Program-made: the position numbers and the translations under genes | From: a virus | Taxonomy: Duplodnaviria; Heunggongvirae; Uroviricota; Caudoviricetes | Reading direction: 5' to 3' (one strand) | Virus record (IMG/VR): IMGVR_UViG_2548876862_000021 | Location: 1-13,456 of that record | DNA length: 13,456 nt | Part shown: one piece after another, positions 1-13,456 of the stretch | Numbering within the stretch: the first letter of the stretch is position 1 | Layout of the letters: every line of letters starts with the position of its first letter | The notes under the pieces: generated by a model | Seen by the model: the letters and a program-made list of their open reading frames with translations, nothing else | Database searches by the model: none | What the model was told of the DNA's origin: nothing

Positions 1-597
1 CAAAACCGGCCAGAATAATCGGCGCCAGGCGGACTGAGTTATTGTCGTTTCATAGCGCCGGGAACCTGAAGCAATAAGGATTTTGTGATCGCGCATCCAC
101 GCAAACAGTTTGTTTGGACCAATACCAACAACCTTTGCAAAGTTTCCAATCAAAATTCCGCTGGCCTCGCCAACGCGATCGGCAAACTCAACTTTAGGTG
201 CGGCAATTGCGAGCTGGTTTTCCAGTTGCATTTTCTGCTCAGCAAGATCAGCAGCAAGGCGCAACGCTTCCGGTAACGTTTTTGGGATATTAACCGCAGT
301 TTCTTCAAGCTCTCGCCAACGGTCAACAAGACGAGCGGTGAACTCTGGCGACAACTGGGCAACAACGACAATACTGTCTCGCTTACCTTGTTCGCCCTCG
401 AAGACGTAATGCTCGTACTGAACACTGAACCCTAAGTTATTGATTCTTTCGGAAACCTCAATTTGAGGAAGCCGGATAACACCATTTTTAGCCAGCGTTT
501 CGATGGTACGTTTCACATTGTCATGACGCTTACCCACCAACTCAGCGATTTCAATGCTTGTCATTTTGATGGCATTGCCATTTATTAACTCATTCAT
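1..597 (-). CDS. Phage antirepressor, Rha N-terminal domain plus ANT/KilA-C-like C-terminal domain; partial, runs off window start
   Basis: Minus-strand ORF from ATG at 597-595 is open to position 1 (199 codons, no stop), so it is absent from the ORF track. I translated it by hand: MNELINGNAIKMTSIEIAELVGKRHDNVKRTIETL... (Rha-like) and ...GNFAKVVGIGPNKLFAWMRDHKIL... (ANT-like). Start overlaps the ninF-like stop by 8 nt. Confidence 0.6.
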   Translation of the reverse strand, partial: MNELINGNAIKMTSIEIAELVGKRHDNVKRTIETLAKNGVIRLPQIEVSERINNLGFSVQYEHYVFEGEQGKRDSIVVVAQLSPEFTARLVDRWRELEETAVNIPKTLPEALRLAADLAEQKMQLENQLAIAAPKVEFADRVGEASGILIGNFAKVVGIGPNKLFAWMRDHKILIASGSRRYETTITQSAWRRLFWPVL

Positions 598-766
598 CGT
601 CTTCTTCCTCGTACATTGAGCTATTCGGATCGCTCATCAGCTCTGCGCAGCAATCGGAGCATACGTGAACTTCCAGCACATGCAGTTTCTGACCGCAGTT
701 AGCGCACGTTAAAGCTCGCTCGACGCTTTCTTTCTGGTATTGAAGGGATTGGGATGGGCTAAGCAT
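590..766 (-). CDS. ninF: NinF-like small zinc-ribbon protein (58 aa)
   Basis: Hand-translated: MLSPSQSLQYQKESVERALTCANCGQKLHVLEVHVCSDCCAELMSDPNSSMYEEEDDE. Two CxxC-type pairs; start ATG overlaps the upstream stop (TAATG). Position matches ninF in the P22/lambda nin set. Below the 60-aa track threshold. Confidence 0.5.
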   Translation of the reverse strand: MLSPSQSLQYQKESVERALTCANCGQKLHVLEVHVCSDCCAELMSDPNSSMYEEEDDE

Positions 767-1125
767 TATTGGATTCTCTGCATCATGAGAAAGACAATCA
801 TGGCGGCGCGGAGGGGATTTTCATGTATAGCTCGCTTAGATTTACAGTAGGCCACACCGCGTGCACCCCACTCGTCTTCATCGAGATTGATAATGCTAAT
901 CCTGTATTTTTCAATAATCGGCCATGCGTCTGCTGGGTTTGCGCATGGGTTAAAGGAACCGCGCTCAACTTCTACTTCAACTGCGTCTCCGTTTACAATG
1001 TCTCCCTCAAATGAGACAAACACCATATCGCCATTCTCACCTTCTTTGTAATCCGGTGATCCGTTATGAATAGCTTCGAATACAGCCACGTTAATTTCAA
1101 AATCACTTAACTGTGAATAATCCAT
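766..1125 (-). CDS. NinX-like hypothetical protein (119 aa)
   Basis: Track ORF 766..1167; I prefer the internal ATG at 1125-1123, preceded by GAGGAA at about 7 nt and sitting 2 nt after the ninE-like stop. Sits between ninE-like and ninF-like as ninX does in P22. No recognisable catalytic motif. Confidence 0.5.
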   Translation of the reverse strand: MDYSQLSDFEINVAVFEAIHNGSPDYKEGENGDMVFVSFEGDIVNGDAVEVEVERGSFNPCANPADAWPIIEKYRISIINLDEDEWGARGVAYCKSKRAIHENPLRAAMIVFLMMQRIQ

Positions 1126-1127
1126 TG

Positions 1128-1304
1128 TCATTTCCTCGCACGATGTCTTAGCCACCGGATATCCCACAGGTGAGCCGTGTAATTGAAGGTTTTTACGTCA
1201 GATTCTTTTGGGATTGGCTTGGGTTTATTTCTGGAGCGCTTCGTTGGAAGGTATTTGCAGTTTTCGCAGATGATGTCGGTGATACTTCGTCGCTGTCGTC
1301 TCAT
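1128..1304 (-). CDS. ninE: NinE-like small basic protein (58 aa)
   Basis: Within track ORF 1128..1364, start at internal ATG 1304-1302, which overlaps the ninB stop (ATGA coupling). Protein [30 protein letters not shown]... Assignment by memory and position. Confidence 0.45.
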
Positions 1305-1741
1305 GCCGCCCTGTCTCCCCATCTCGCTTTCCACTCCAGAGCCAGTCGCGCTTCGTCTGACCACTTAACGCCATGTTCTGTACCGAATGCCTGTATAAGC
1401 TCTAATAGCTCCGCAAATTCGCTTACACGCATCCTGCTGGTTGACTGGCCTATTACCACAAAGCCATTCCCGGCAAGGTTAGGAACAACATCCTGCTGCT
1501 TTAATGCTGCGGTAAACACACACTTCCAGCTTTCTGCATCCAGCCAGCGACCATGCCATTCAACCTGACGAGAGACGTCACCAAGGCAAGCCCAAAGCTT
1601 TCGATTCTGGTCTAAGCTGCGGTTGCGTTCCTGAATGGTTACTACGATTGGTTTGGTTGGGTCTGGAAGAATTTGCTGTACCGCGTGAATAGCGTTTTGC
1701 TGATGTGCTGGGGATCGAATTTCAAAGGTTAGTTTTTTCAT
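1301..1741 (-). CDS. ninB: NinB (Orf-family recombination mediator)
   Basis: 146-aa [59 protein letters not shown]... recognised as lambda NinB family; same length as lambda NinB as I recall. Confidence 0.8.
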
Positions 1742-1934
1742 GACTTCCCTCTCTAACAGATTTCAGGTTATTCCACTCCGTTACCGCACTGCGATAATTC
1801 GCGGCCGCCACAGCGGCGTGGTTAGCGCAGTAGATTTGGCACCCGTTCTCCATGTCGAATATTGTCGGTGATTTTCCGCATTTACATTTTTTGGCACGCG
1901 GTGCGTCTGAACACATTCCGTTAACGGTGTCCAT
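1722..1934 (-). CDS. Small Cys-rich (putative zinc-binding) protein, nin-region, NinA/NinD-position
   Basis: 70-aa ORF with CxC...C...C pattern (CKCGK, CQIYC); GAGGGGGA Shine-Dalgarno upstream of ATG 1934; 3' end overlaps ninB start by 20 nt. Function not assignable. Confidence 0.5.
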   Translation of the reverse strand: MDTVNGMCSDAPRAKKCKCGKSPTIFDMENGCQIYCANHAAVAAANYRSAVTEWNNLKSVREGSHEKTNL

Positions 1935-1957
1935 CAGGATCCCCCTCGTTCTTAATC

Positions 1958-1990
1958 CAATAAAAAAGGGCTACTGTGTAAATAGCCCCT
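1958..1990 (-). terminator. Intrinsic terminator between helicase and nin genes (tR2-like position)
   Basis: On minus strand GGGCTA-TTTACACAG-TAGCCC stem-loop followed by TTTTTTATT, 29 nt downstream of the helicase stop. Confidence 0.5.
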
Positions 1991-2018
1991 GTTATTAGCT
2001 CAGTGATGTAGATGGTCA

Positions 2019-3455
2019 TCAGAATCCTCCTTTCTTCTTGGACTGCGGCTCCTCGCGTTCACGGCGGCGCATTTCAGCAGACTGTTGGTCTGTGTCATAA
2101 ATAGCGCCATTTGCCTGAATGCAATACACCGTGCCGGTATTGCCATGACGATTGAGACGAAGGATTAGTTCGGTTTCACCAGGTGGAACACTGTCATCAA
2201 AAGCACCTTCACGATGGATCCCCACCCAATAATCGCAATCCTGTTCAATCTGCCCTGTATCGCGCGAGTCACTTGGTAATGGGCGTTTATTGGTTCGGCT
2301 TTCCAATGCGCGGTTAAGCTGTGTCAGAAGCACAACAACGCAATCAAGCTCTTTGGCAAGGTTCTTCAATCCTTTGGTGATCATGCCGTAAGCAAGGTCG
2401 TTGCGATCGGCCTTCTCAGCAGTCATTAGTGTCAGGTAATCGACCAGAATCATGCCAACGCATCCTTTTTCTCGCTTGATTCGACGGCTTTCGCTGACGA
2501 TTTGAGCCAGAGATAATCCCGGCGTGTCGTCGATGTAAAGCATGTCGATTTCACTCAAGCGATTGGCTGTTTCGATCGCCCTGTTGAAGTCACCATCGTA
2601 ATCACCCTGATAGCCGTCATCGGCGTCATTTGTCGCCGGAAGGTAAAAAATATTCGGGTTAACACCAGACTTCTGCCCTACCAGTTTTTCCAGTATCTGG
2701 TCACCTGGCATTTCAAGGCTGAACATCAGAGCGGGCTTTTTCTCATGCACTGCGCAATTGATTGCCATCTGGCTGTATAGCGTCGTTTTCCCCATCTTAG
2801 GGCGAGCGCCAATGACAAACAGAGAGCCTTTCACCAGACCTTTCGGTGACAGCATCCTGTCCAGCGATGGGATCCCTGTGCTCATTCCTCGTTGTTCGCC
2901 TGACGGGTCAAATCGCTTCTCAAGGTCGCTAACCCAGTCTTCCATGACCTCACCAAATGAACGAAGGCCGCGACGCGATCCGGTTTTTGCATGGTCTGTC
3001 AGTTGCGTGAAAATCGACTGAATAGCTTCGTACTTCTGTGTTGCAGTCATTCCGTTGCGGGAATAGAGCAATTCCGTCGCTTCAGTCATGCGGTTGATGG
3101 CGTAGCGTTCCATTGCGGTTTCACGAACCTGCATTGCATAGGCAATGATGTTTGCTGCGCTTGGCGTGTTCTTTGCGATCTCAGCGATATAAGCAAAACC
3201 GCCAACAGACGCCGTTAACGATTTACGCTCCAGTTCATCGAAAAGCGTCAGGCCATCTACTGGCTTTTGCTCCCGGTGCATTCTGGTTATTTCTTCGAAA
3301 AGGATTTTGTGTGGTCGACTGTAAAATGAGTCAGGCTTCAGCATCGCCAGAACCTTCTGGACGCGCTCACTGCTGTCATCATCCAGAAGCAATCCACCAA
3401 TCACCGCCTGCTCTGCCTCGATGCTATGGGGCGGCGCATAAAAATTATCGGTCAT
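2019..3455 (-). CDS. Replicative DNA helicase, DnaB family (P22 gene 12-like)
   Basis: Strong resemblance to E. coli DnaB throughout (PHSIEAEQAVIGGLLLD, Walker A GARPKMGKTT, LVDYLTLM, LTQLNRALESR). Track starts at GTG 3470; I prefer ATG 3455-3453, preceded by GAGGGTG. Overlaps the O-like stop by 11 nt. Confidence 0.9.
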   Translation of the reverse strand: MTDNFYAPPHSIEAEQAVIGGLLLDDDSSERVQKVLAMLKPDSFYSRPHKILFEEITRMHREQKPVDGLTLFDELERKSLTASVGGFAYIAEIAKNTPSAANIIAYAMQVRETAMERYAINRMTEATELLYSRNGMTATQKYEAIQSIFTQLTDHAKTGSRRGLRSFGEVMEDWVSDLEKRFDPSGEQRGMSTGIPSLDRMLSPKGLVKGSLFVIGARPKMGKTTLYSQMAINCAVHEKKPALMFSLEMPGDQILEKLVGQKSGVNPNIFYLPATNDADDGYQGDYDGDFNRAIETANRLSEIDMLYIDDTPGLSLAQIVSESRRIKREKGCVGMILVDYLTLMTAEKADRNDLAYGMITKGLKNLAKELDCVVVLLTQLNRALESRTNKRPLPSDSRDTGQIEQDCDYWVGIHREGAFDDSVPPGETELILRLNRHGNTGTVYCIQANGAIYDTDQQSAEMRRREREEPQSKKKGGF

Positions 3456-4335
3456 CGTGTTCACCCTCACGAACTTTCAGGTAGGTATTATCGTTAAGCA
3501 GGAAATCAAATCCCTTTTTGTGCCAGACGGTTCCGCGCTGATGGTTTGGGCGCTCTTCGAACATCCATCGGCAATTTTCGCCTACGTAGCTCAAATAATT
3601 TCTCCAGTCCTGCATCGTGAAACCATGCCCGTCAAGCTGGCGGGTTATCACTCCGGCTTTGCGCCAGAACGTTCGGATCTGGTTTTTACGCTTGTCATTC
3701 AGTGCGCGGATTCTTGGCGCTTCAGGAAGGATTTCGTGGTAAGCATCGACAACATCCTGACAGCTAACGGAAGGTTTTTTCTTGTCAGACTTTTTGTCTG
3801 CTGTGGCACTCTCTAATACGTCAGTATTAGAGATATTATTTATATTATTGTTTATGGACAACCGTTGGACAACCGTTGGACAATCTCCGCTGAGAGCCGC
3901 GCCATTACTGGTGTTTGCGTTGGACAACCGTTGGACAACCGTTGGACAATTTTTTGCCTGAAAATCGTCATATTTAACGATTGTAAACAGGCTAAATTTC
4001 TTCCCCATCGAGCAAATATTAAGCATACCTTTCGACTCAAAAGTCCGTAATAAGCTCCGAACTTTGTTGTCGGGGATGAATGTTTCTCTGACCAGCGACG
4101 GGCGTCCAGTTATCATCTGACCGCGATCAACAGTTATCGGACCGATATCCGTATTGACGACAGTAGATTCGTGATTAGCCTTGAGGATTAAGTGAAGCCA
4201 AAGATGTACTGCCTGAGAGTCCTTATAGAGCCTGCTGTCCATAAACTGGCGGTGTATAGAGACATACCCCATACTGGATGCCTCCTGATGTTGTACAGGG
4301 TTATGCCTGTAATCAGCTAACTTAACGACGCCCAT
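3445..4335 (-). CDS. Replication initiator, lambda O-like (iteron-binding)
   Basis: 296-aa ORF immediately upstream of the helicase; contains the ori iterons inside its coding sequence (encoded peptide repeat CPTVVQRLSN), as in lambda O; AGGAG 6 nt upstream of the ATG. Confidence 0.75.
   Translation of the reverse strand: MGVVKLADYRHNPVQHQEASSMGYVSIHRQFMDSRLYKDSQAVHLWLHLILKANHESTVVNTDIGPITVDRGQMITGRPSLVRETFIPDNKVRSLLRTFESKGMLNICSMGKKFSLFTIVKYDDFQAKNCPTVVQRLSNANTSNGAALSGDCPTVVQRLSINNNINNISNTDVLESATADKKSDKKKPSVSCQDVVDAYHEILPEAPRIRALNDKRKNQIRTFWRKAGVITRQLDGHGFTMQDWRNYLSYVGENCRWMFEERPNHQRGTVWHKKGFDFLLNDNTYLKVREGEHDDR
3813..3950. repeat. Replication origin: two clusters of three direct ~11-bp iterons (GTTGGACAACC) plus flanking AT-rich stretch
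   Basis: Seen directly: 3856-3884 GGACAACCGTTGGACAACCGTTGGACAAT and 3919-3950 CGTTGGACAACCGTTGGACAACCGTTGGACAAT; AT-rich 3813-3855 (TATTAGAGATATTATTTATATTATTGTTTAT) lies downstream in the direction of O transcription, the lambda ori arrangement. Confidence 0.7.
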
Positions 4336-4483
4336 GTTTCACTCCTGCTTTGGCTAGTCTGTAAACACCAACAAGGCGCTCTGCGAACGCCCTGTTATTT
4401 GCTGCGGCTACCACTAATCCCTCAGGTGAATCAGGGTGTCGAATCTCTTCTTTTTCCTGGTATTTCTTACGACGTTTTGTCAT
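4322..4483 (-). CDS. Hypothetical small basic protein (53 aa) between cII and O
   Basis: Hand-found ORF MTKRRKKYQEKEEIRHPDSPEGLVVAAANNRAFAERLVGVYRLAKAGVKHGRR, AGGAG 6 nt upstream of ATG 4483-4481; 3' end overlaps the O start by 14 nt. Below track threshold. Confidence 0.35.
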   Translation of the reverse strand: MTKRRKKYQEKEEIRHPDSPEGLVVAAANNRAFAERLVGVYRLAKAGVKHGRR

Positions 4484-4517
4484 AATTACTCCTGTGGATT
4501 GATCCAGTCTTTCTACA

Positions 4518-4796
4518 TCAGGCCTCGAAGAATTCGCCGTTCTTCGGGGCTTTTTCTTTTGTCAGCATTCTGGCTACTTTCTTAGCCAGTTCCGCCAACT
4601 CCTCGTCTTCAACACCCCATTCAAGAACAGCCAGAAGCATTCCCATTTTGGGGATGAAGCTATCTTTCCATCGCGAAATTTGCGATTCATTAATCCCTAA
4701 CGCGTCGGCAACCTTTCGCTGACCACGTACAGCAATTCGATTCAGGATGTTGCTTGTAATTGCATTCGCTTTCTTGCGAGTACTTGTAAGTTGCAT
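4518..4796 (-). CDS. cII: cII-like transcriptional activator
   Basis: Track ORF 4518..4883 contains MQLTSTRKKANAITSNILNRIAVRGQRKVADALGINESQISRWKDSFIPKMGMLLAVLEWGVEDEE..., aligning with lambda CII (QISRWK...MLLAVLEWGV). Start set at ATG 4796-4794 so that nutR lies outside the gene. Confidence 0.8.
   Translation of the reverse strand: MQLTSTRKKANAITSNILNRIAVRGQRKVADALGINESQISRWKDSFIPKMGMLLAVLEWGVEDEELAELAKKVARMLTKEKAPKNGEFFEA
4522..4560 (+). terminator. Intrinsic terminator on the strand antisense to the cII 3' end (oop-like)
   Basis: 11-bp stem (GCCTCGAAGAA / TTCTTCGGGGC, one G-U) with 7-nt loop, directly followed by TTTTTCTTTT. Candidate extended -10 (TGtCATAAT, 4478-4486) about 40 nt upstream. 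Confidence 0.5.
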
Positions 4797-4854
4797 ATGT
4801 AAGTATTTCCTTAACAAATAAGAAGTTATGCGCATCAAATTATGCGCGTTGTAT

Positions 4855-4898
4855 TCCCGCATTTCGGCGGGAATGATGACCATGACTGTTAAAGAGCG
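4855..4898 (-). promoter_or_regulatory. nutR-like site: boxA (CGCTCTTTAACA) followed by boxB hairpin
   Basis: Read on minus strand: boxA at 4898-4887, 14-nt spacer, boxB TCCCGC-CGAAAT-GCGGGA at 4872-4855; the boxB 18-mer is identical to the one upstream of N. Confidence 0.6.
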
Positions 4899-4904
4899 GT
4901 GTTA

Positions 4905-5101
4905 CTATTTGTTTTTCTTGTTGCTTGGGAAAGGACGAACTTCCTCTCCAATCACACTGCCATCAGGCTTTACCGTAACCATGATGTTACGGCCTGCCAG
5001 AATGGCCTTGCTGATAGCGCACTGGATTACACCAAAGTCACTGGCTGCTTTAGCCTGTCCATGGATTTTGGCGTAATCGGCAAGTGTCATTCGAATCATA
5101 T
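4905..5101 (-). CDS. cro: Cro-like repressor
   Basis: [62 protein letters not shown] aligns with lambda Cro ([22 protein letters not shown]...PFPSNKK). Track start is GTG 5105; I prefer ATG 5101-5099 with GGAGAG upstream. Confidence 0.8.
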
Positions 5102-5128
5102 GCACTCTCCGTTATTAACCATGAACAA

Positions 5129-5198
5129 AGAATACCACAGGTATTCAAAGCAATCAATACTCAGGGTATTTTTAGTTTAAGTACCTTAGCTATTAGAA
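5129..5198. promoter_or_regulatory. OR region: three 15-bp operators (AATACC-N3-GGTATT) with divergent PR and PRM
   Basis: 5131-5145 AATACCACAGGTATT (perfect palindrome), 5156-5170 AATACTCAGGGTATT (1 mismatch), 5180-5194 AGTACCTTAGCTATT (2 mismatches); centre spacing 25 and 24 bp. PR on minus: -35 TTGATT (5157-5152), 17-bp spacer, -10 TATTCT (5134-5129). Candidate PRM -10 TAGAAT 5193-5198. Confidence 0.65.
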
Positions 5199-5205
5199 TT
5201 AAGCT

Positions 5206-5922
5206 ATGGAAAATAAAAAATCACTGACGACAGAACAGCTCGAAGACGCTAAGCGGCTTAAGGCTTTGTATGAGTCAAAAAAGAAAGAATTGGGAATAAC
5301 CCAATACTCAATCGCTGATGAACTGGGTATCACCCAAGGAGCGGTAGGGCATTATCTTAATGGCAGAAACGCGCTAAACGTTGAGGTCGCATCTGGTTTT
5401 GCACGTTTGTTGCAAGTCTCAATTGCTGATTTTAGCCAGTCAATTGCTGCCAAGGTTGCAGAACAGGCAGAAAGCCTTAAGAGCGATGCCAACGTAAGGT
5501 ATGCAGGGGAATACAGAGCAGGAAAGAGGTATCCGGTGTTAAGCAGTATCCAGGCTGGCTCGTGGTGTGAAGCATGCGAACCATACACCATTAAAGACAT
5601 AGATGTTTGGCTTGAGTCTGACGCGCATATTCAAGGTAATGCGTTCTGGCTTAAAGTGGAAGGTGATTCAATGACGGCACCGGTTGGGTTAAGCATTCCA
5701 GAGGGAACATTCGTTCTTTTCGATACCGGAAGGGAGGCGATCAACGGCAGCTTGGTCATAGCAAAACTTTCTGACTCTAACGAAGCAACATTCAAGAAGC
5801 TGATAATCGACGGCGGAAATAAATACCTCAAGGGACTTAATCCTGCATGGCCTCTCGTGCCAATCAATGGAAACTGCAAGATTATAGGCGTTGCAATTGA
5901 GACAAAACTAAGGCTGGTTTGA
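5206..5922 (+). CDS. cI: CI-type prophage repressor (HTH N-terminal domain plus S24 LexA-like autocleavage domain)
   Basis: 238 aa, collinear with lambda CI ([24 protein letters not shown] / FWLEVEGNSMTAP / FKKLIRD all matched by close variants). No Shine-Dalgarno upstream of the ATG. Confidence 0.9.
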   Translation: MENKKSLTTEQLEDAKRLKALYESKKKELGITQYSIADELGITQGAVGHYLNGRNALNVEVASGFARLLQVSIADFSQSIAAKVAEQAESLKSDANVRYAGEYRAGKRYPVLSSIQAGSWCEACEPYTIKDIDVWLESDAHIQGNAFWLKVEGDSMTAPVGLSIPEGTFVLFDTGREAINGSLVIAKLSDSNEATFKKLIIDGGNKYLKGLNPAWPLVPINGNCKIIGVAIETKLRLV

Positions 5923-5939
5923 TCACGCAAGGGGCGATT

Positions 5940-6308
5940 ATGGTTGGAACCGCTATAGCAAGCTTTTTTGGGATGTTGGCAATCTCGACAATTTACGGCT
6001 TAGCGCATGCTTTTATTGCGAAATCTCTATCAGAAAAAATAAGCCAGGCTTGGGCGCATAGATCAGCTCGTTTCATGATTCTGGTGATCATAGCAATACA
6101 AGGGATATCTGCATTTATCCTCTATGGATCAAGCTTATACCTATTGTATCAAGGCGCGACATTTACGCCTTACACCAGTGATTACGGAACTCTATACGAT
6201 GGTAGTGAAGACATCACTGTGGCTTGGATCGTCTTTGGTTTATCTATGGCCGTGTCTGTTGTAGCAGACATCATTAAGGTAATTCTCGTCTTAACCTTCG
6301 CTGACTAA
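5940..6308 (+). CDS. Small multi-pass membrane protein co-transcribed with cI (rexAB/sieB-position; candidate exclusion or abortive-infection factor)
   Basis: Track ORF 5919..6308 begins at a TTG overlapping the cI stop; ATG at 5940 has AAGGGG about 6 nt upstream. Several long hydrophobic segments consistent with transmembrane helices (AIASFFGMLAISTIYGLAHAFIA, FMILVIIAIQGISAFILYG, VAWIVFGLSMAVSVVADIIKVILVL). Confidence 0.6.
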   Translation: MVGTAIASFFGMLAISTIYGLAHAFIAKSLSEKISQAWAHRSARFMILVIIAIQGISAFILYGSSLYLLYQGATFTPYTSDYGTLYDGSEDITVAWIVFGLSMAVSVVADIIKVILVLTFAD

Positions 6309-6438
6309 CCTATAATCCCGGCAGCAATAGCTATCGGGATCCACTTCACATATCCCGCATAAAAAGCACTGAACAAGCAGACACCGAAAAAATAAATATC
6401 CTTTGTATTCATTTGCTTATCATTATTTCACCAAAAAT

Positions 6439-6480
6439 AAATACCTTGGGTATTTACACAATAAAATACCTACAGTATTC
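6439..6480 (+). promoter_or_regulatory. OL region: two operators of the same AATACC-N3-GGTATT family, with PL
   Basis: 6439-6453 AATACCTTGGGTATT (perfect), 6464-6478 AATACCTACAGTATT (1 mismatch), centres 25 bp apart. Candidate PL -35 TTTACA 6452-6457, 17-bp spacer, -10 TATTCT 6475-6480, the same -10 hexamer as PR. Confidence 0.6.
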
Positions 6481-6526
6481 TTTAGCCATCAGCAGGACGC
6501 TGGAAGCCAAACGGAACAGATTGGCA

Positions 6527-6568
6527 GGCTCTTTAACATTGATGGGATTGTCCCGCCGAAATGCGGGA
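6527..6568 (+). promoter_or_regulatory. nutL-like site: boxA (GGCTCTTTAACA) followed by boxB hairpin
   Basis: boxA 6527-6538 resembles the rrn/lambda boxA consensus; boxB TCCCGC-CGAAAT-GCGGGA at 6551-6568, identical to the nutR boxB; located between PL and N. Confidence 0.6.
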
Positions 6569-6675
6569 ACCAAAGAGTAGTTGGCTTTGGGGTGACGTGA
6601 AGTGCAGCTGCACGACGGCAACCGGAAGATAAGCACCCGGCGCGTCACCGCCAAAGTCAATCATCGGAGGTCAAC

Positions 6676-6975
6676 ATGACAGTAGTCATTACATATCTGG
6701 CTGACGATAACGCCAGAAATCGCCGCAGAGCACGCAGACAGGCTCAACGTGAGCAGGCAATGCAAGAGCAGCGACTGGCGCGAAAAATTGCGCTAAAGCT
6801 CTCTGGTTGCGTCAGAGCAGATAAAGCAGCATCACTCGGAAGCCTTCGCTGCAAGAAGGCAGAAGAAGTCGAGAGTAAACAGAATCGCATTTACTACCGC
6901 AAGCCACGCAGTGAAATGGGTGTGACTTGTGTTGGTCGCCAGAAAATGAAATTAAGCAGCAAACCACTTATTTGA
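6676..6975 (+). CDS. N: N-like transcription antiterminator
   Basis: 99 aa; N-terminal arginine-rich motif (NARNRRRARRQAQREQA); C-terminus RIYYRKPRSEMGVTCVGRQKMKLSSKPLI parallels lambda N (RTWYSKPGERGITCSGRQKIKGKSIPLI); GGAGG 6 nt upstream; directly downstream of nutL. Confidence 0.75.
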   Translation: MTVVITYLADDNARNRRRARRQAQREQAMQEQRLARKIALKLSGCVRADKAASLGSLRCKKAEEVESKQNRIYYRKPRSEMGVTCVGRQKMKLSSKPLI

Positions 6976-6983
6976 GGTGAGAT

Positions 6984-7070
6984 ATGGAAGAAGAATTTGA
7001 AGAGTTCGAAGAGCATCCGCAGGATGTGATGGAACAGTACCAGGACTATCCGTATGACTACGACTATTGA
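6984..7070 (+). CDS. Hypothetical 28-aa highly acidic, aromatic-rich peptide
   Basis: Hand-found: MEEEFEEFEEHPQDVMEQYQDYPYDYDY, preceded by GAGGTGAG. Very short, so coding status is uncertain. Confidence 0.3.
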   Translation: MEEEFEEFEEHPQDVMEQYQDYPYDYDY

Positions 7071-7254
7071 TAAAAATCAATGGTGTGGACAATTCAAGCG
7101 ATGCAATGGATGCAAGCTGCAATCGGAATGCATGGTTAAGCCTGAAGAAATGTTTCCTGTAATGGAAGATAGGAAATATGTCGATAAATGGGCAATACGA
7201 ACGACGGCAATGATTGCCAGAGAACTTGGTGAACTGAACAACAAGGCTGCCTGA
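7054..7254 (+). CDS. Hypothetical small Cys-containing protein (66 aa)
   Basis: Track ORF with C-x5-C-x2-C-x5-C spacing; weak ribosome-binding site; followed by a hairpin plus T-run. Confidence 0.35.
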   Translation: MTTTIDKNQWCGQFKRCNGCKLQSECMVKPEEMFPVMEDRKYVDKWAIRTTAMIARELGELNNKAA

Positions 7255-7290
7255 TGGTGGCCTTTATTTTCTTATTTGAGAGGAATTAAT

Positions 7291-7914
7291 ATGTCATCAA
7301 TCCGCTTAACTACGAGAATGAAAGAGGAAATCGCTCGTAACGCTTTAATTAAGTCTGGGGTTTTCACTGAGCTTGAAGAAGTAACAAAGTTAAAGAACCA
7401 GCTTGCACTTGACGCCAGAGTTATTGCGTTTGGCGGTAAAAAGAAAACTGAGGAAGTGGATCAGTTATCATCCAAGTTGGTAGCTATAAGTGAAGAACTT
7501 GAAAAGATGGGATGTTCATTTTACTCATACGATTTTCGTTCTACTTCAATTTATCTGACTGTATCTGGCAGAAGGGTTGGATGGCATTCATATGGGAAAG
7601 ACGGCAACGGCGAAGATATATTTCCCCCTACTCCAACCAAAGATAAATGCATGTTTGACGCAGAACACGAAATAACAAAAAGGTTTGATGAAATCTGCGC
7701 ATTGCAACAAAAACTTGAAGCCAAGAAAAAGGATATCGAATCAAATGTATGGGCTGCTTTGAACTCAGTCACAACAGTTAAGCGACTTATTGAGGTTTGG
7801 CCTGAAAGCAAAGAATTGCTACCAAAAGAAGCAGATAAAGCAAGTACAGCACTTCCTGCTTTACGGGTAGAAGATTTGAATAAGATGACTGGACTTCCTT
7901 CCGAGGCTGCATAG
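7291..7914 (+). CDS. Hypothetical protein (207 aa), first gene of low-GC cassette
   Basis: Track ORF 7276..7914; start set at ATG 7291 preceded by GAGAGGAA. GC about 38-40% in hand-counted 60-nt samples versus about 48-50% in flanking genes. No recognisable motif. Confidence 0.6.
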   Translation: MSSIRLTTRMKEEIARNALIKSGVFTELEEVTKLKNQLALDARVIAFGGKKKTEEVDQLSSKLVAISEELEKMGCSFYSYDFRSTSIYLTVSGRRVGWHSYGKDGNGEDIFPPTPTKDKCMFDAEHEITKRFDEICALQQKLEAKKKDIESNVWAALNSVTTVKRLIEVWPESKELLPKEADKASTALPALRVEDLNKMTGLPSEAA

Positions 7915-7977
7915 TCGGCCTTTATTTTTAGCATAAACAACAGAATAAACACTGCACTGAATTATTTGAGGTTAGAT

Positions 7978-8448
7978 ATGACAAAATCATGGAGCGTACC
8001 TTTTCCTGAATCAGAAACTGAACATGAGGGAATGCCTGTTTTCTGGAGATTCCAGGCGACAGTTGAAGAAGATGGAATCAAAATATTCGCACTTCAATAT
8101 ATAGCTTTTCATCAGACAGAGCATTATGCATGGTTGGTTCCTGCGCATTGGATTGTTAATTTTAAACCAGCACCAAATCAGTGGTTACAGGAATGGAAAC
8201 AAAAGAGAAATAGATATGCAATTAAGAAAGTAGCAAAAAATGCAGAAAGATCTTTTGCATTCCCAACGAAGAAACTTGCCATTGAGAGTTTATTGCGCCG
8301 GAAGAAATACCATTTAATGAGAATCAAACAAGATTTGGCTGTTGTATCAACTCTTGTTGATGGGATGAAGAATATTGATACATCAACACCAGATATTGAA
8401 TATAACTTTGGGCACAACCAAGAAACAGAAAATTGGGTATTTTATTAG
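7978..8448 (+). CDS. Hypothetical protein (156 aa), second gene of low-GC cassette
   Basis: Track ORF 7966..8448; start set at ATG 7978 preceded by GAGGT. Low GC; no recognisable motif. Confidence 0.6.
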   Translation: MTKSWSVPFPESETEHEGMPVFWRFQATVEEDGIKIFALQYIAFHQTEHYAWLVPAHWIVNFKPAPNQWLQEWKQKRNRYAIKKVAKNAERSFAFPTKKLAIESLLRRKKYHLMRIKQDLAVVSTLVDGMKNIDTSTPDIEYNFGHNQETENWVFY

Positions 8449-8552
8449 TACGAGTAAGCACTATGTATTCATTCCAACGAGTGAATACACGGAGCAATGT
8501 CGCTCGTAACTAAACAGGAGCCGACTTGTTCTGATTATTGGAAATCTTCTTT

Positions 8553-8578
8553 GCCCTCCAGTGTGAGGGCTTTTTTAT
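8553..8578 (+). terminator. Intrinsic terminator downstream of the low-GC cassette
   Basis: GCCCTC-CAGTGT-GAGGGC stem-loop immediately followed by TTTTTTAT. Confidence 0.6.
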
Positions 8579-8642
8579 ATGCATACCAATAACGCTTCAC
8601 TTGAGGCGTTTTCGTTATGCAATCAAATATAAGGAGTTACCC

Positions 8643-8777
8643 ATGATGCACTTTCAGCTCGCGGGTAGCGGCGTCATGTCCGCTTTCTACCCGCACGAAT
8701 CTGAATTATCACGCCGAGTTAAACAATTAATCAGAGCAGCAAAGAAACAACTGGAGGCGTTATGCGCAATGAGATAG
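8643..8777 (+). CDS. cIII: cIII-like small protein (44 aa; FtsH-inhibitor family)
   Basis: MMHFQLAGSGVMSAFYPHESELSRRVKQLIRAAKKQLEALCAMR resembles the lambda CIII core (AIAGWPVAGCPSESLLERITRKLR); AAGGAG upstream. The 79-aa track ORF 8538..8777 is an upstream TTG extension of it. Confidence 0.55.
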   Translation: MMHFQLAGSGVMSAFYPHESELSRRVKQLIRAAKKQLEALCAMR

Positions 8778-8914
8778 CCATCAATCACCAGATGCTTCGT
8801 GCTGCACAGAACAAAGCAGTAATAGCTAGATTTATTGGTGATTCCAAAATGTGGCTTGAAGCAAATAAAGCGATGAAATCAGCTATCAACCTTCCGTGGT
8901 ATCGCAGGAAATGA
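8762..8914 (+). CDS. Kil-like small protein (50 aa), overlapping the cIII-like 3' end
   Basis: Hand-found: MRNEIAINHQMLRAAQNKAVIARFIGDSKMWLEANKAMKSAINLPWYRRK. GGAGG upstream; overlap with cIII mirrors the lambda cIII/kil arrangement. Similarity to lambda Kil is from uncertain recall of an ATFIGDEKMF-type motif. Confidence 0.4.
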   Translation: MRNEIAINHQMLRAAQNKAVIARFIGDSKMWLEANKAMKSAINLPWYRRK

Positions 8915-8989
8915 GTTTTACAGATAACTGGTCAGACGAAGAATTCATTCGTCAGATGAAAGAATTAATCGGTAACGAAGGAGATATTC

Positions 8990-9160
8990 ATGTCACTTGC
9001 AACCACAGTGAAGGAGAGCAAGTTACAGAGACGCATGTACACGCAGAAAGCTCTCTGGTATCGCCATAATGGTGACCGCGAAGGAATGCGGGTATGCCTT
9101 AATTTGTCCCGAGTCGAAGTATTAAATCAGCGTTATTTCCTTGGGCCGTGTCCATTCTGA
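8990..9160 (+). CDS. Hypothetical small protein (56 aa)
   Basis: Hand-found: MSLATTVKESKLQRRMYTQKALWYRHNGDREGMRVCLNLSRVEVLNQRYFLGPCPF. AAGGAG upstream; ends 8 nt before the SSAP gene. Confidence 0.35.
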   Translation: MSLATTVKESKLQRRMYTQKALWYRHNGDREGMRVCLNLSRVEVLNQRYFLGPCPF

Positions 9161-9168
9161 GGTGAATT

Positions 9169-9876
9169 ATGGATTTGAATAAATTCGATGAGCCATTCAG
9201 CCCTGAAGATATCGAATGGCGAATACAGCAAAGCGGTAAAACACGCGATGGCAAAGTGTGGGCTATGGTGCTGGCTTATGTCACGAACCGGGCAATCATG
9301 AAACGCCTGGACGATGTTTGTGGCAAAGCAGGATGGCGCAATGAATACCGCGATATTCCCAACAACGGCGGCGTTGAATGCGGCATATCAATAAAGATTG
9401 ATTCCGAATGGGTAACCAAATGGGATGCTGCTGAAAACACGCAGGTAGAAGCCGTCAAAGGTGGTCGTTCAGGTGCAATGAAGCGCGCTGCCGTTCAGTG
9501 GGGAATCGGTCGGTATCTGTATAACCTTGAGGAAGGTTTCGCACAAACATCTCTCGACAAAAAGCAGGGATGGCACAGGGCAAAACTCAAGGATGGAACA
9601 GGATTTTACTGGCTCCCTCCATCGCTGCCAGGCTGGGCAATCCCAGCATCAGATAACAAACCATCACCAGAAAATACCAACCAGAAATCTCCATCGGTTG
9701 ACTGCGAGCAAATCCTGAAAGACTTCAGCGATTATGCGTCAACAGAAACTGACAAGAAAAAACTCATCGAGCGTTATCAGCGTGACTGGCAATTAATGGC
9801 TGGCAACGAGGAAGCGCAGGCTAAATGCGTTCAGGTAATGAACATCAGAGTTAACGAACTAAAACAGGCGGCATAA
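9169..9876 (+). CDS. Single-strand annealing protein, Rad52/Sak-like
   Basis: 235 aa; region KGGRSGAMKRAAVQWGIGRYLY fits the Rad52-family pattern; stop abuts the SSB start (TAAATG); GAGGTG upstream. Confidence 0.6.
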   Translation: MDLNKFDEPFSPEDIEWRIQQSGKTRDGKVWAMVLAYVTNRAIMKRLDDVCGKAGWRNEYRDIPNNGGVECGISIKIDSEWVTKWDAAENTQVEAVKGGRSGAMKRAAVQWGIGRYLYNLEEGFAQTSLDKKQGWHRAKLKDGTGFYWLPPSLPGWAIPASDNKPSPENTNQKSPSVDCEQILKDFSDYASTETDKKKLIERYQRDWQLMAGNEEAQAKCVQVMNIRVNELKQAA

Positions 9877-10383
9877 ATGGCAAGCAGAGGCGTAAATAAG
9901 GTGATTATCCTTGGTCGGGTAGGACAAGACCCGGAAGTTCGATACTCACCATCAGGAACAGCGTTCGCTAACCTGACAATAGCCACGTCAGAACAATGGC
10001 GAGATAAAAATACTGGCGAGCAAAAGGAATTGACTGAATGGCATCGTGTTGCTGTATCCGGGAAACTGGCTGAGGTCGTGGGGCAGTATGTGAAAAAAGG
10101 TGATCAGATTTATTTCGAGGGAATGCTGAGAACCAGAAAGTGGAAAGACCAGTCAGGACAAGACCGTTACACAACCGAGGTTCATGTCGGAATTAATGGC
10201 GTGATGCAAATGCTTGGCGGCATTGGCGACAGCAAACAACAAGCAGCCAGCAGGCAATCACAGAAGCCACAGCAGCAATCATCACCAGCACAACACAACG
10301 AACCACCTATGGATTTTGACGACGATATACCCTTTGCACCAGTAACTCTCCCCTTCCCTCGTCACGCTATTCACGCAATTTAA
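9877..10383 (+). CDS. ssb: Single-stranded DNA-binding protein (SSB) with a 15-aa extension beyond the canonical DDDIPF tip
   Basis: N-terminus [23 protein letters not shown]..., [14 protein letters not shown] and [11 protein letters not shown] all match E. coli SSB; the ORF continues [15 protein letters not shown] before the stop. Confidence 0.9.
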
Positions 10384-10396
10384 TCAGGAGAAAATC

Positions 10397-10690
10397 ATGC
10401 CAGCGCCTCTGTATTGTGCGGATGACGCGCGCCGCTGTTCCGGCAATTCCGTATCGGAGGTGCTGGATAAATTCAGAAAAAACTACGATCGAATAATGTC
10501 TCTACCGCAGGAAACGAAAGAGGAAAAGGAATTTCGCCACTGCGTATGGCTTGCAGAGAAAGAAGAACGCGAGCGAATTTACCAGACATCAATCCGACCA
10601 TTCCGCAAAGCCACATATACCCACTTCCCTGAAATTGACCCGCGCCTGCGTAATTACCGCTCACGCTATGGCGCTATCAGTAATGACTGA
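10397..10690 (+). CDS. Hypothetical protein (97 aa)
   Basis: Track ORF; AGGAG 6 nt upstream of the ATG. Confidence 0.55.
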
Positions 10691-10700
10691 GGAATTTACC

Positions 10701-10865
10701 ATGAGAGGACTTGCATACAATCCCGGCATTCTTCCGGCAGAAATGATTATTCGCCAACGCGTAAAGCCAATGCCATCGAGAGAGGAATTGCTTAAGAGAA
10801 ATAGTTTCGGTTCTGTTAATGACAACAAATATCTGAATGCGATGTTGCGGAGTGGGAAGAAATGA
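10701..10865 (+). CDS. Hypothetical small protein (54 aa)
   Basis: In-frame ATG inside track ORF 10551..10865, preceded by GAGGAA; stop overlaps the next start (ATGA). Confidence 0.4.
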
Positions 10866-11374
10866 AACAAATGTCACTAATTGAGATGGATGGTTTTCTG
10901 AAAGGTAAATGCATCCCAAGTGATTTAAAGGTTAACGAAACAACCGCTGAATATCTGGTGCGTAAGTTTGGTGAACTCGAATCAAAACTGGAAACGGCGT
11001 TGCGGGAGTGTCGTTCTGCTGGAATCACGATTGACAACCTTGAAGCCAAGTGCGATGCGCTGGCGGCGGAGAATGCGGCACTGAAGGCTGGCGCTATGGA
11101 CGAAATCAAGGTTATCAACCGTGGAGGTCAGGCATATTGCGTAAAAGATGGAGTGCAAGTTAATCCCATGTATGCAAGAGGGTGGAATGACTATCGCGCA
11201 AAGTCTATGCAATCAGACACCCCAGCCACCGATGCTTTCCTGGCTGAAGTTCGGGCGCAGGGCGTGGAGATGGCTATGGAGCATATGCAGTCGAGCGGTT
11301 CGTTAACATTTGGAGATTGCTACATATCACTTAACGAGTTCGCCGCCCAGCTTCGCAAAGGAGGCAACCAGTGA
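10862..11374 (+). CDS. Hypothetical protein (170 aa), predicted coiled-coil segment
   Basis: Track ORF; heptad-like segment [40 protein letters not shown]; translationally coupled on both sides. Confidence 0.6.
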
Positions 11375-11886
11375 GCGAAATTAATTACCAGGCACTGCGT
11401 GAGGCGGCGGAACGTGCAATTCCAGCAATGGAACGCCTGTTAATGTTGCCAGCTGATGATGATTTGTTAAGTGAACAGGAACTTAAAGATTACGGTGTGG
11501 ATATTGATGCGCTCAACGCCTTCAAATTTCTGACCGGACCAGAAACCGTGCTGGCGCTGCTGGATGAACGGGAAAGAAACCAGCAATACATCAAACGCCG
11601 CGACCAGGAGAACGAGGATATTGCGCTAACGGTAGGGAAACTGCGTGTTGAGCTTGAAGCAGCAAAATCAAAACTCAACGAGCAGCGTGAATATTACGAA
11701 GGCGTTATCTCTGATGGGAGCAAGCGTATTGCTGAACTGGAGGAGCGGGAAATACTGCTCCCGGAACGTAGCAGCATGCTTCATCGAACAGATTTTCACG
11801 ATGATTACCAAACGGTAATGGCATACAAAGTTTCTGAAGTCATCGCTGCAATCCGCGTCGCTGGCATTCGCATCAAAGGAGAGTGA
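11371..11886 (+). CDS. Hypothetical protein (171 aa), possibly Ead/Ea22-like
   Basis: Track ORF with GTG start overlapping the previous stop, AAAGGAGG 6 nt upstream; Ead/Ea22-like label is from memory of similar prophage proteins, unverified. Confidence 0.5.
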   Translation: MSEINYQALREAAERAIPAMERLLMLPADDDLLSEQELKDYGVDIDALNAFKFLTGPETVLALLDERERNQQYIKRRDQENEDIALTVGKLRVELEAAKSKLNEQREYYEGVISDGSKRIAELEEREILLPERSSMLHRTDFHDDYQTVMAYKVSEVIAAIRVAGIRIKGE

Positions 11887-11887
11887 T

Positions 11888-12151
11888 ATGGCAACTTTAA
11901 CAAAAAAAGAACGGGCATGGTTGAACGAATTACAGGACGTTCTTGATCGCTGCCCATCACCGAAAAAAATTGGTTTTTACACCATTGGCGATAAAAGCAT
12001 TTACCTGTATGACCTGCGCCGCATGGATGAAATCATGGAGGCTCTTGATAATCGTTCGTCGATGGATTGGTGTGTTGCTGTCCATGATATGAATGCCGGA
12101 TTTGATGAAAGGATTTTGTTCCCCTCATCAGTTGAAAGCACTGCGGGTTAA
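11888..12151 (+). CDS. Hypothetical protein (87 aa)
   Basis: Track ORF; AAAGGAG upstream; 1-nt gap after the previous stop. Confidence 0.55.
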   Translation: MATLTKKERAWLNELQDVLDRCPSPKKIGFYTIGDKSIYLYDLRRMDEIMEALDNRSSMDWCVAVHDMNAGFDERILFPSSVESTAG

Positions 12152-12161
12152 GGAGTAACAC

Positions 12162-12848
12162 ATGACCACTATTACCAAAGAACGTATTGAATTGTTCATT
12201 AAAAATCCGCTTGAAAACGGGCTTACCCGTGGTGAACAAATGGAACTGGCACGGATTGCGCTGGCATCGCTGGAAGCAGATCCAGTTGCTTATATTTTCA
12301 AACATCCGGCCGGGAAATTATTCTGGTCTTTAACGGATGAAAGCAATAAAGAGCAAGCGGACGTTATTCCTGTTTATGCTGCCGCGCCTGCGTCGGTTGT
12401 GCCGGATAATGCATCAGAGCCTCTTGCTTATGCTTACAAAGAGCTTACGCCTGAGATTATGCGCAACCATTTAGCTGTATTCGAGCGATATGGAATAGCC
12501 CCAAACGATAGCTCTACCACAATTCAGGCACTGCGAATCGCGCTGGATGGCATAGAGCGGAGAGACGCCATGCTTCATGGTGCCGAACCTGTAAGCCAAA
12601 CTTACAAGTTGAACCAGCTATCGGGCAACTATCCGGTAACTCCGGATGGTTGGATAAGATGTAGTGATCGAATGCCGGAAGACACCAAAATGTTACTGGC
12701 ATTTAGTCAAGGTGAAATCGTGGCCGCATATTGGAACTGGGTTGTAAATCCAATTGATTACAAAAAATATAGAGCTTTCACGTATTTATCAGGAAATATC
12801 TTGGATGACGTAACTCACTGGATGCCGCTACCAGAGCCTCCACTTTGA
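12162..12848 (+). CDS. Hypothetical protein (228 aa), C-terminal DUF551-like region
   Basis: Track ORF; TAAGGAG upstream; C-terminal ...VTHWMPLPEPPL resembles the DUF551 signature as I recall it. Confidence 0.55.
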   Translation: MTTITKERIELFIKNPLENGLTRGEQMELARIALASLEADPVAYIFKHPAGKLFWSLTDESNKEQADVIPVYAAAPASVVPDNASEPLAYAYKELTPEIMRNHLAVFERYGIAPNDSSTTIQALRIALDGIERRDAMLHGAEPVSQTYKLNQLSGNYPVTPDGWIRCSDRMPEDTKMLLAFSQGEIVAAYWNWVVNPIDYKKYRAFTYLSGNILDDVTHWMPLPEPPL

Positions 12849-12944
12849 AAGCGAAGCTTATACATATCTTTTACATCAGCAATCTATTGTTAATCTCCAA
12901 TCAATGTTACGTTGTCATCTCACTCATGCTTTGGAGGTAGTGAT

Positions 12945-13124
12945 ATGTCTTGTCCAAAATGCGGTTCTGGAAATATTGCAAAAGAAAAAACAATGCGTGG
13001 ATGGTCTGATGATTATGTGTGCTGCGATTGCGGATACAACGACTCTAAAGACGCATTTGGAGAGCGTGGTAAAAACGATTTTGTCAAAATTAATAAAGGA
13101 CGCGAAGGCAACGAAAAAAGCTAA
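12945..13124 (+). CDS. Small zinc-ribbon protein (59 aa)
   Basis: MSCPKCGSGN...CCDCGYN (CxxC...CxxC); GGAGG upstream of ATG 12945. The track ORF 12912..13124 uses an upstream TTG. Confidence 0.5.
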   Translation: MSCPKCGSGNIAKEKTMRGWSDDYVCCDCGYNDSKDAFGERGKNDFVKINKGREGNEKS

Positions 13125-13187
13125 TTTATTTATTCATATATGAAAACAATGTAACCAATATTCGAATTGAAGAACTGAAAGAACACC

Positions 13188-13212
13188 AAGCCGCCTGATG
13201 GCGGTTTTTTAT
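13188..13212 (+). terminator. Intrinsic terminator ending the leftward-operon accessory block
   Basis: CCGCC-TGAT-GGCGG stem-loop followed by TTTTTTATT. Confidence 0.6.
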
Positions 13213-13255
13213 TACCTGATTTGCAGGTTCGATTCCCTATTCGGAGATAGCACTC

Positions 13256-13456
13256 ATGCAACACGAACTACAGCCTGATTCCCTGGTTGATTTGAAATTC
13301 ATCATGGCCGATACTGGCTTCGGTAAAACCTTCATCTATGACCGGATTAAGTTCGGAGACCTGCCTAAAGCCAAAGTTATCCACGGGCGAGCAAGATGGT
13401 TATATCGTGACCATTGTGAATTCAAAAATAAGCTCTTAAGCCGCGCCAATGGGTAA
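13256..13456 (+). CDS. Excisionase / AlpA-family DNA-binding protein (probable Xis)
   Basis: 66 aa; ...MADTGFGKTFIYDRIKFGDLPKAKVIHGRARWLY... fits the AlpA/excisionase pattern; GGAGAT upstream; stop at the last base of the window. Confidence 0.5.
   Translation: MQHELQPDSLVDLKFIMADTGFGKTFIYDRIKFGDLPKAKVIHGRARWLYRDHCEFKNKLLSRANG

Follow-up and report, generated by a model that had tools for sequence, protein, structure and literature searches.

The stretch of DNA analyzed here (hereafter the window; 13,456 nucleotides [nt], positions 1 to 13,456 of IMG/VR record IMGVR_UViG_2548876862_000021) covers the early region of a lambdoid E. coli phage or prophage with HK620-type immunity. Between its repressor gene, cI, and the leftward operators lies a single gene, hkaS, whose product is a predicted small membrane protein and forms the subject of this report. 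The best overall matches to the window are phages mEpX2, IME10, Huey, HK620 and phi296, in a mosaic pattern; over positions 5900-6450, nucleotide identity is 100% with phi296 and phi367 (phages of Shiga toxin [Stx] hosts), 99.8% with mEpX2 and 98.7% with HK620 and HK630. By annotation transfer, positions 5940-6308 on the plus strand correspond to the gene hkaS of coliphage HK620 (GenBank AAK28867), the two proteins being 99% identical and alike in start, length and neighbours. The product is labelled "unknown" in the HK620 record (2001), "HkaS protein" in HK630 and "hypothetical protein" in phi296 and RefSeq. The open reading frame (ORF) has thus been annotated since 2001 and its observation is not in itself new. 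The protein is assigned over its entire length (residues 1-122 against profile positions 1-122 of 122; E 2.4e-79) to PHROG 6534, a family of unknown function.

The features of the region, for which HK620 annotations were transferred by a constant offset (window = L001 + 4399), are as follows.

4773-4812, plus strand: pRE, the cII-activated establishment promoter (HK620 annotation transfer only)
4905-5099, minus strand: cro (HK620 annotation and ORF list; Pfam Cro in homologous loci)
5130-5195, no strand given: OR1 (5130-5146), OR2 (5155-5171) and OR3 (5179-5195), with divergent pR and pRM (HK620 annotation)
5206-5922, plus strand: cI repressor, with an HTH_3 N-terminal and a Peptidase_S24 C-terminal domain (Pfam, 8.1e-10 and 5.2e-24; PHROG 4)
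5929-5934, plus strand: Shine-Dalgarno (SD) sequence of hkaS, AAGGGG, 5 nt 5' of the ATG (sequence)
5940-6308, plus strand: hkaS, 122 amino acids (aa), three predicted transmembrane (TM) helices (HK620 annotation, PHROG 6534, hydropathy, AlphaFold2, substitution analysis [dN/dS])
6315-6340, plus strand: stable hairpin without a U-tract, 7 nt after the hkaS stop (fold and shuffle test)
6390-6420, plus strand: tIMM, an AT-rich weak hairpin overlapping OL3 (HK620 annotation)
6417-6488, plus strand: OL3 (6417-6433), OL2 (6439-6455), OL1 (6464-6480) and pL (6453-6488) (HK620 annotation)
6527-6568, plus strand: nutL, with boxA GCTCTTTAA and a boxB hairpin (HK620 annotation; boxB seen in the fold)
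6676-6975, plus strand: N-like antiterminator, the far border of the cI-N accessory slot (PHROG 271, E 2.4e-36; weak Pfam N_peptide match)

The window cI is 99-100% identical to that of HK620-immunity phages, and the OR palindromes (GAATACC-N3-GGTATTC) are visible in the sequence. With cro reading leftward from OR and cI rightward, followed by hkaS, the hairpin, OL/pL, nutL and N, the layout parallels cI-rexA-rexB-OL-N of lambda in both order and orientation, so that the proposal of the first-pass annotation that this gene occupies the slot held by rexAB in lambda was borne out; hkaS is the sole ORF between cI and OL.

That annotation had drawn the gene at 5919-6308. The ORF is present in the ORF list and the gene is real, but its start lies elsewhere. 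The mechanical ORF opens at a TTG at 5919 that overlaps the cI stop codon (TGA, 5920-5922). Only the ATG at 5940 is conserved as a start, because in-frame stop codons precede it in two diverged homologues: a TAA lies immediately 5' of the hkaS ATG in the Salmonella/Enterobacter-type locus L004, and a TGA lies seven codons 5' of it, with no start codon in between, in the Hafnia-type locus L010. The TTG was accordingly rejected as unconserved and cut off by these stops. ATG 5940 is also the start used in the HK620, HK630 and phi296 annotations, and the 122-aa product that it opens is, on the sequence, the true one. A purine run resembling an SD sequence occurs at the matching place in all five lineages compared, namely the window, L010, L004, L008 and L039 (Buttiauxella).

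The gap between the cI stop and the hkaS start is 17 nt in the window and 17-20 nt across all homologous loci, as had been claimed ("within 20 nt"). The further claim that the gene is translationally linked to cI held in part: the co-transcriptional linkage is tight, whereas coupling at the level of translation, which may occur but is not needed, was an overstatement, as there is no overlap between the two genes and hkaS is equipped with an SD of its own. In a consensus scan of positions 5000-6800, nothing resembling a promoter or terminator was found between the two genes, nor any internal hkaS promoter akin to lambda pLIT; the sole promoter-like site in this interval (TTTACA-17-TATTCT at 6453-6481) is the annotated pL. 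Because the gap is short in every lineage and no promoter- or terminator-like site intervenes, cI and hkaS are very probably co-transcribed. The hairpin at 6315-6340 (-13.7 kcal/mol, z = -4.0, none of 200 shuffles as stable) has counterparts of unrelated sequence behind the hkaS stop in all four other lineages; in L039 the counterpart has a U-run and is a canonical intrinsic terminator. The window hairpin probably forms the 3' end of the cI-hkaS transcript, or stabilises it, ahead of OL.

Could hkaS be a spurious or decaying ORF, a chance hydrophobic frame in the spacer between cI and OL? The lack of a known domain, the tiny size of the family and the existence of a few frameshifted variants (P0006, P0007, P0009) would suit such a reading. 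Against it, the gene is invariant at 122 codons, without insertions or deletions, in lineages whose proteins are 83%, 61%, 52% and 57% identical to that of the window, and its start and SD are conserved. The ratio of non-synonymous to synonymous substitution rates (dN/dS) is 0.13-0.20 where synonymous sites are unsaturated, well below 1; in the other pairs, the proportion of synonymous differences (pS) is ~0.8, i.e. saturated, and that of non-synonymous differences (pN) just 0.27-0.33, the proteins still being 52-61% identical. All 80 hkaS copies retrieved from IMG/VR are intact, and as few as seven sequences sufficed for a confident AlphaFold2 model. These conservation data, which indicate that hkaS is under purifying selection, effectively refute the view that the frame is fortuitous, to which we assign a negligible probability. 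In the frameshifted variants, which have one or two members each, the first ~30 residues are swapped for MITQGGAYGWNRYSKLFGDVGNLNNLRLSAC..., which points to decay of these copies or else to errors in assembly.

Synonymous divergence is alike in cI and hkaS (dS 0.76 vs 0.69), so that the two have diverged as one co-inherited block, whereas hkaS is about four times faster in amino-acid change (dN 0.33-0.42 vs 0.08 for cI). Within the close IMG/VR clade, hkaS has 17 synonymous and 23 non-synonymous segregating sites, the latter chiefly in TM1 and around residues 85-107. The last eight codons of the gene (6282-6308; ILVLTFAD) are near-identical at the nucleotide level, synonymous sites included (e.g. 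an invariant TTA Leu codon), across lineages whose synonymous sites are otherwise saturated, which could reflect a nucleotide-level constraint or a recombination joint.

Predicted topology and conserved parts of HkaS

The initial description of the product as a polytopic membrane protein made almost entirely of hydrophobic helices is roughly right. Its grand average of hydropathy (GRAVY) is +0.98, and both hydropathy and AlphaFold2 predict three TM helices, for which the following segments are proposed.

Residues ~3-27: TM1 (predicted)
Residues 28-44: cytoplasmic loop (predicted)
Residues ~45-70: TM2 (predicted)
Residues 71-92: periplasmic loop (predicted)
Residues ~93-121: TM3 (predicted)

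In all six lineages compared, the net charge is +3 to +5 in the first loop (28-44) and -1 to -4 in the second (71-92). The positive-inside rule thus predicts a periplasmic location for the N-terminus and loop 2, and a cytoplasmic one for loop 1 and the C-terminus; three hydrophobic helices combined with this charge pattern are what is expected in silico from a protein integral to the inner membrane. The AlphaFold2 model, computed from a seven-sequence alignment (mean predicted local distance difference test [pLDDT] score 92, predicted template modelling [pTM] score 0.79), places helices at 2-29, 31-38 (short and amphipathic), 41-73 and 89-121, and a small beta-hairpin within the periplasmic loop at 74-88.

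Conservation is unevenly spread over these parts. Mean pairwise identity is highest in the cytoplasmic loop (65%) and in TM3 together with the C-terminus (62%), and lowest in the periplasmic loop (47%, with two of its 22 residues invariant). Conserved elements include a cytoplasmic motif at 33-45 (K-I-S/T-Q-A/S-W-x-H-R/K-x-A-R-F), YLLY where TM2 reaches the periplasm, the invariant pair D110 and K113 inside TM3, and the C-terminal ILVLTFAD.

Database searches placed the protein in a very small family. HkaS forms 12 clusters among 5.8 billion clustered proteins, all from Enterobacterales, and an exhaustive profile search of 1.84 billion representatives returned two matches, one of them a 44-aa fragment. 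Sub-threshold Pfam matches to Cation_ATPase_C (17.6 bits; cut-off 27.3) and TssN are consistent with hydrophobic composition, and no sequence relative was found in the PDB.

Variable cargo behind related cI repressors

In every locus examined, hkaS lies directly behind an HK620-type cI C-terminal domain and upstream of OL/pL. The C-terminus of cI is directly upstream in 79 of the 80 IMG/VR loci, the last of which begins at the gene and has nothing upstream to check. Among 50,697 phage records, the 16 with an HK620-type cI are exactly the 16 with hkaS. The immunity module that carries it occurs in phages whose virions are of unrelated type, namely the P22-like HK620, the lambda-like HK630 and Stx2c phages. 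The gene is found in 146 of 5426 complete E. coli genomes (~2.7%), always on the chromosome, as well as in Salmonella, Enterobacter, Hafnia and Buttiauxella, and the exact protein occurs on at least 1000 contigs, always under the name "hypothetical".

Beyond this module, the place behind cI is filled differently. In a survey of 80 cI relatives from other species, with 40-76% identity, hkaS was absent from 79 and present just in L039, from an uncultured Buttiauxella. In the 36 loci, from other Enterobacterales, for which downstream ORFs were listed (L014-L049, L071), the genes behind cI are diverse and unrelated to hkaS, and their products include soluble proteins of 250-380 aa, a 260-aa protein with five TM segments, and small single-TM peptides; examples are the 260-aa five-TM protein of Tatumella (L017), proteins of 256-376 aa (L015, L018, L020-L022, L025) and a 44-aa single-TM peptide of Proteus (L026). 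In lambda the slot holds rexAB and in 434 it holds hex. Published work portrays the interval between cI and N as mosaic and as a hotspot in which accessory loci reside (PMC8585504, PMC7067206). Since cI relatives in other genera carry unrelated genes in this slot, hkaS is one cargo of a known accessory-gene ("moron") hotspot, here in an HK620-type immunity module; it lies on the same strand as cI and before OL/pL, with no promoter- or terminator-like site in between. The genes behind cI in L014-L049 and L071 could likewise be mined for new repressor-operon cargo.

The Buttiauxella locus (L039:2440-3600) is a hybrid module. The N-terminal DNA-binding domain of its cI and its operators, which are TTAAGT-type repeats, differ from those of HK620; the C-terminal domain of its cI is ~90% identical to that of HK620 and is followed by hkaS (57% identity) and the intrinsic terminator. 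This arrangement indicates that hkaS is independent of operator specificity and stays attached to the 3' end of cI; an obligate tie between HkaS and operator specificity was rejected on this ground.

Possible roles of HkaS

The reading that we favour, at a probability of roughly 45%, is that HkaS may act at the membrane and so guard the lysogen against heterologous phages outside the reach of the repressor. Both the expression of hkaS in the lysogen and any anti-phage activity are inferred here, the proposed role in exclusion or abortive infection deriving from the position of the gene, the predicted membrane location of its product and the precedent of rexAB, 933W stk, 434 hex and BTP1 bstA (PMC3564112, PMC8585504). 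Genes co-transcribed with cI are described in published work as mostly conferring exclusion, as do rexAB, stk, hex, sim and glo (PMC3564112) and likewise bstA (PMC8585504, PMC7067206). In the mechanism envisaged, cI and hkaS would share a transcript, driven by pRM in the lysogen and by pRE while lysogeny is being established, transcription from pRE running through cro (antisense) into cI-hkaS. HkaS would be translated from its own SD and would insert in the inner membrane as a three-helix protein with a periplasmic N-terminus and a cytoplasmic C-terminus. The rapid evolution of the periplasmic loop is in keeping with a surface exposed to incoming phage.

P22 SieA, HK97 gp15 and T4 Imm are small integral inner-membrane proteins that block phage entry and are made from the prophage or early in infection, and a genome-entry block of this type would be the likelier mode of action of HkaS. 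Abortive infection through a collapse of membrane function, the mode ascribed to RexB and SieB, would be less likely here. SieA of P22 is both necessary and sufficient to block DNA delivery (PMC10883804). The genes for SieA, gp15 and Imm lie elsewhere in their genomes, in contrast to hkaS with its place in the repressor operon, and HkaS had no match to exclusion families of the SieA, gp15 or Imm type in Pfam, PHROG or PADLOC, no pairwise comparison with SieA or gp15 having been made.

Sequence comparisons set HkaS apart from the exclusion proteins to which it might most readily be likened. HkaS shares with lambda RexB its slot and strand (cI to OL/pL), and both are small polytopic inner-membrane proteins (122 vs 144 aa); RexB, however, is usually described with four TM helices against the three predicted for HkaS, and it has a partner, RexA, of which the hkaS operon contains no equivalent. 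SieB is encoded in the pL arm beyond N, whereas hkaS lies between cI and OL. The earlier remark that the protein resembles neither of the two agrees with hhalign probabilities of 0.7% (RexB) and 1.8% (SieB) and with the lack of any Pfam, PHROG exclusion-family or PADLOC match; homology to RexB, SieB and 434 Hex (0.08%) was rejected on these values.

Hex and BstA, like RexAB and Stk, are positional analogues of HkaS. The 434 hex gene lies directly behind cI, as hkaS does, the C-terminal domain of 434 cI having 73% nucleotide identity to that of HK620; it is co-transcribed from PRM (PRM-cI-hex) and excludes P22 in Salmonella (PMC3564112). Hex has a single N-terminal hydrophobic segment followed by a non-hydrophobic remainder, in contrast to the three TM helices of HkaS. 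In lysogens, BTP1 bstA, which lies downstream of cI and serves in defence (PMC8585504, PMC7067206), is expressed from the promoter of cI (PMC7067206). BstA is reported to act at the replication sites of incoming phage DNA and to have a self-immunity element, aba (PMC8585504); this mode differs from a membrane-level block, and HkaS lacks any PADLOC match.

As annotated, 434 hex (L174:2166-2570) encodes a signal-peptide-like hydrophobic N-terminus, MIRIAALLSILLTTSANSEC..., and a note in the 434 record states that the original paper inferred the wrong hex start codon. Export of Hex would fit awkwardly with the cytoplasmic step, RecA-stimulated cleavage of the repressor, on which it is proposed to act.

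Several observations weigh against an exclusion role for HkaS. Position alone cannot tell defence from other accessory roles, 434 Hex being credited with both kinds. The HK620 record has, beyond N, a different gene, hkaP, annotated as a putative sieB-like exclusion gene. Pfam, NCBIfam and PADLOC returned no family match, PHROG 6534 being the lone family, and none of these results ties the protein to exclusion or defence. Fold searches with the HkaS model yielded no viral match at E <= 0.001 and, in the PDB, generic helical bundles only. Literature searches, including those on HK620 and mEpX2, found no publication on hkaS. The conserved cytoplasmic face (KISQAWxHRxARF, ILVLTFAD), finally, suggests a partner in the host or cytoplasm and not a phage target in the periplasm, and this strong conservation keeps alive two explanations in which HkaS serves the stability of the lysogen or the fitness of the host.

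The second of these would make HkaS a lysogenic-conversion protein unrelated to phages, with a part in envelope physiology, stress tolerance, transport or colonisation. The gene would be constitutively expressed in the lysogen if co-transcribed with cI as the layout suggests, its presence in a few percent of complete E. coli genomes and in four further genera would suit this reading, and the conserved cytoplasmic face would then reflect a host partner that is itself conserved; host-fitness factors are numerous among the accessory genes of prophages (PMC7067206). HkaS nevertheless matched no transporter, regulator or virulence family, and hkaS is confined to one immunity module, never occurring outside prophage immunity regions, where a wider spread might be expected of such a gene. 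We regard this explanation as unlikely, if worth keeping in mind.

Alternatively, HkaS may be a prophage-stability factor that tunes the maintenance or establishment of lysogeny rather than excluding other phages. It might act on repressor cleavage in the manner of Hex, or, through its conserved cytoplasmic face, it might target a membrane protease or chaperone of the host that controls cII or cI levels. A non-defence role of this nature stays credible because 434 Hex, from the same position in the PRM-cI-hex operon, lowers spontaneous induction by blocking RecA-stimulated autocleavage of the repressor (PMC3564112). Consistent with it are the linkage of hkaS to the autocleavage domain of cI rather than to operator specificity, as seen in L039, the presence of the gene in all 16 sequenced phages with an HK620-type cI, the strong conservation of the cytoplasmic loop and C-terminus, and the additional supply of HkaS that pRE would provide during establishment. 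HkaS is, however, unrelated to Hex, and the 17-nt distance alone can explain its linkage to the cI C-terminal domain. Moreover, cI relatives at 64-76% identity lack hkaS, with other genes in its place where ORFs were listed, which argues that the repressor does not need HkaS. To our knowledge, there is also no precedent for an integral membrane protein acting in repressor cleavage. On balance, a role in lysogen stability appears distinctly improbable.

More speculative still, and in our estimation a long shot, is that HkaS acts as a one-protein, RexAB-like membrane sensor-effector or, alternatively, that its cytoplasmic face docks onto a host inner-membrane protease or the C-terminal domain of cI. 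The former idea draws on a likeness to class I holins such as lambda S105, with which the predicted HkaS shares both size and topology (three TM helices, N-terminus out, C-terminus in). HkaS would be inert in the lysogen membrane until tripped by an incoming phage or a host partner, the latter binding its conserved cytoplasmic face, and would then depolarise the cell. Unlike holins, HkaS ends with TFAD right after TM3 and so lacks their charged cytoplasmic tail, its gene sits in the immunity operon rather than in a lysis cassette, and no holin family was matched in Pfam or PHROG. Were HkaS to dock instead, the KISQAWxHRxARF and ILVLTFAD surface would feed the state of the envelope into the lysis-lysogeny switch.

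Taken as an exclusion factor, HkaS would add to a well-known kind of system a new family, very small in size, whose members exclude phages by means of one membrane protein, and would help account for phage host range in E. coli lysogens; a role in repressor stability would be of relevance to Stx-phage induction. The slot between cI and N of lambdoid prophages has been a repeated source of defence systems (rexAB, stk, hex, bstA), and hkaS, present in ~3% of complete E. coli genomes with Stx2c-converting phages included, is also carried by model phages with easy genetics (HK620, HK630, mEpX2). It is a sound but ordinary lead that holds no conceptual surprise for phage biology.

Minor features between hkaS and N

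The terminator scan that covered positions 5000-6800 missed tIMM, and an Rfam search of the window returned no known RNA family. A 35-aa hydrophobic ORF, MNTKDIYFFGVCLFSAFYAGYVKWIPIAIAAGIIG, at 6305-6412 on the minus strand runs antisense towards the hkaS stop. It lacks an SD, its start codon falls within the tIMM stretch a few bases before OL3, and it matched no family in Pfam, PHROG, PADLOC or NCBIfam. The notion of a type I toxin-like peptide was rejected after hand translation of L004 and L009-L012, where a stop codon follows after ~10-12 codons, and the ORF is probably spurious. A 65-aa ORF at 6403-6600 on the plus strand, annotated as hypothetical in HK630 (HK630_043) and phi296, spans OL3-OL1, pL and nutL and is likely a gene-caller artefact in these records. 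In the N leader (6580-6660, plus strand), a long stable hairpin built on GGCUUUGGGGUGACG...CGUCACCGCCAAAG lies between nutL and the N start; the GCTTTGG...CCAAAG arms that flank it recur in the diverged loci L004 and L008, and the structure is reminiscent of the lambda N-leader hairpin that RNase III processes.

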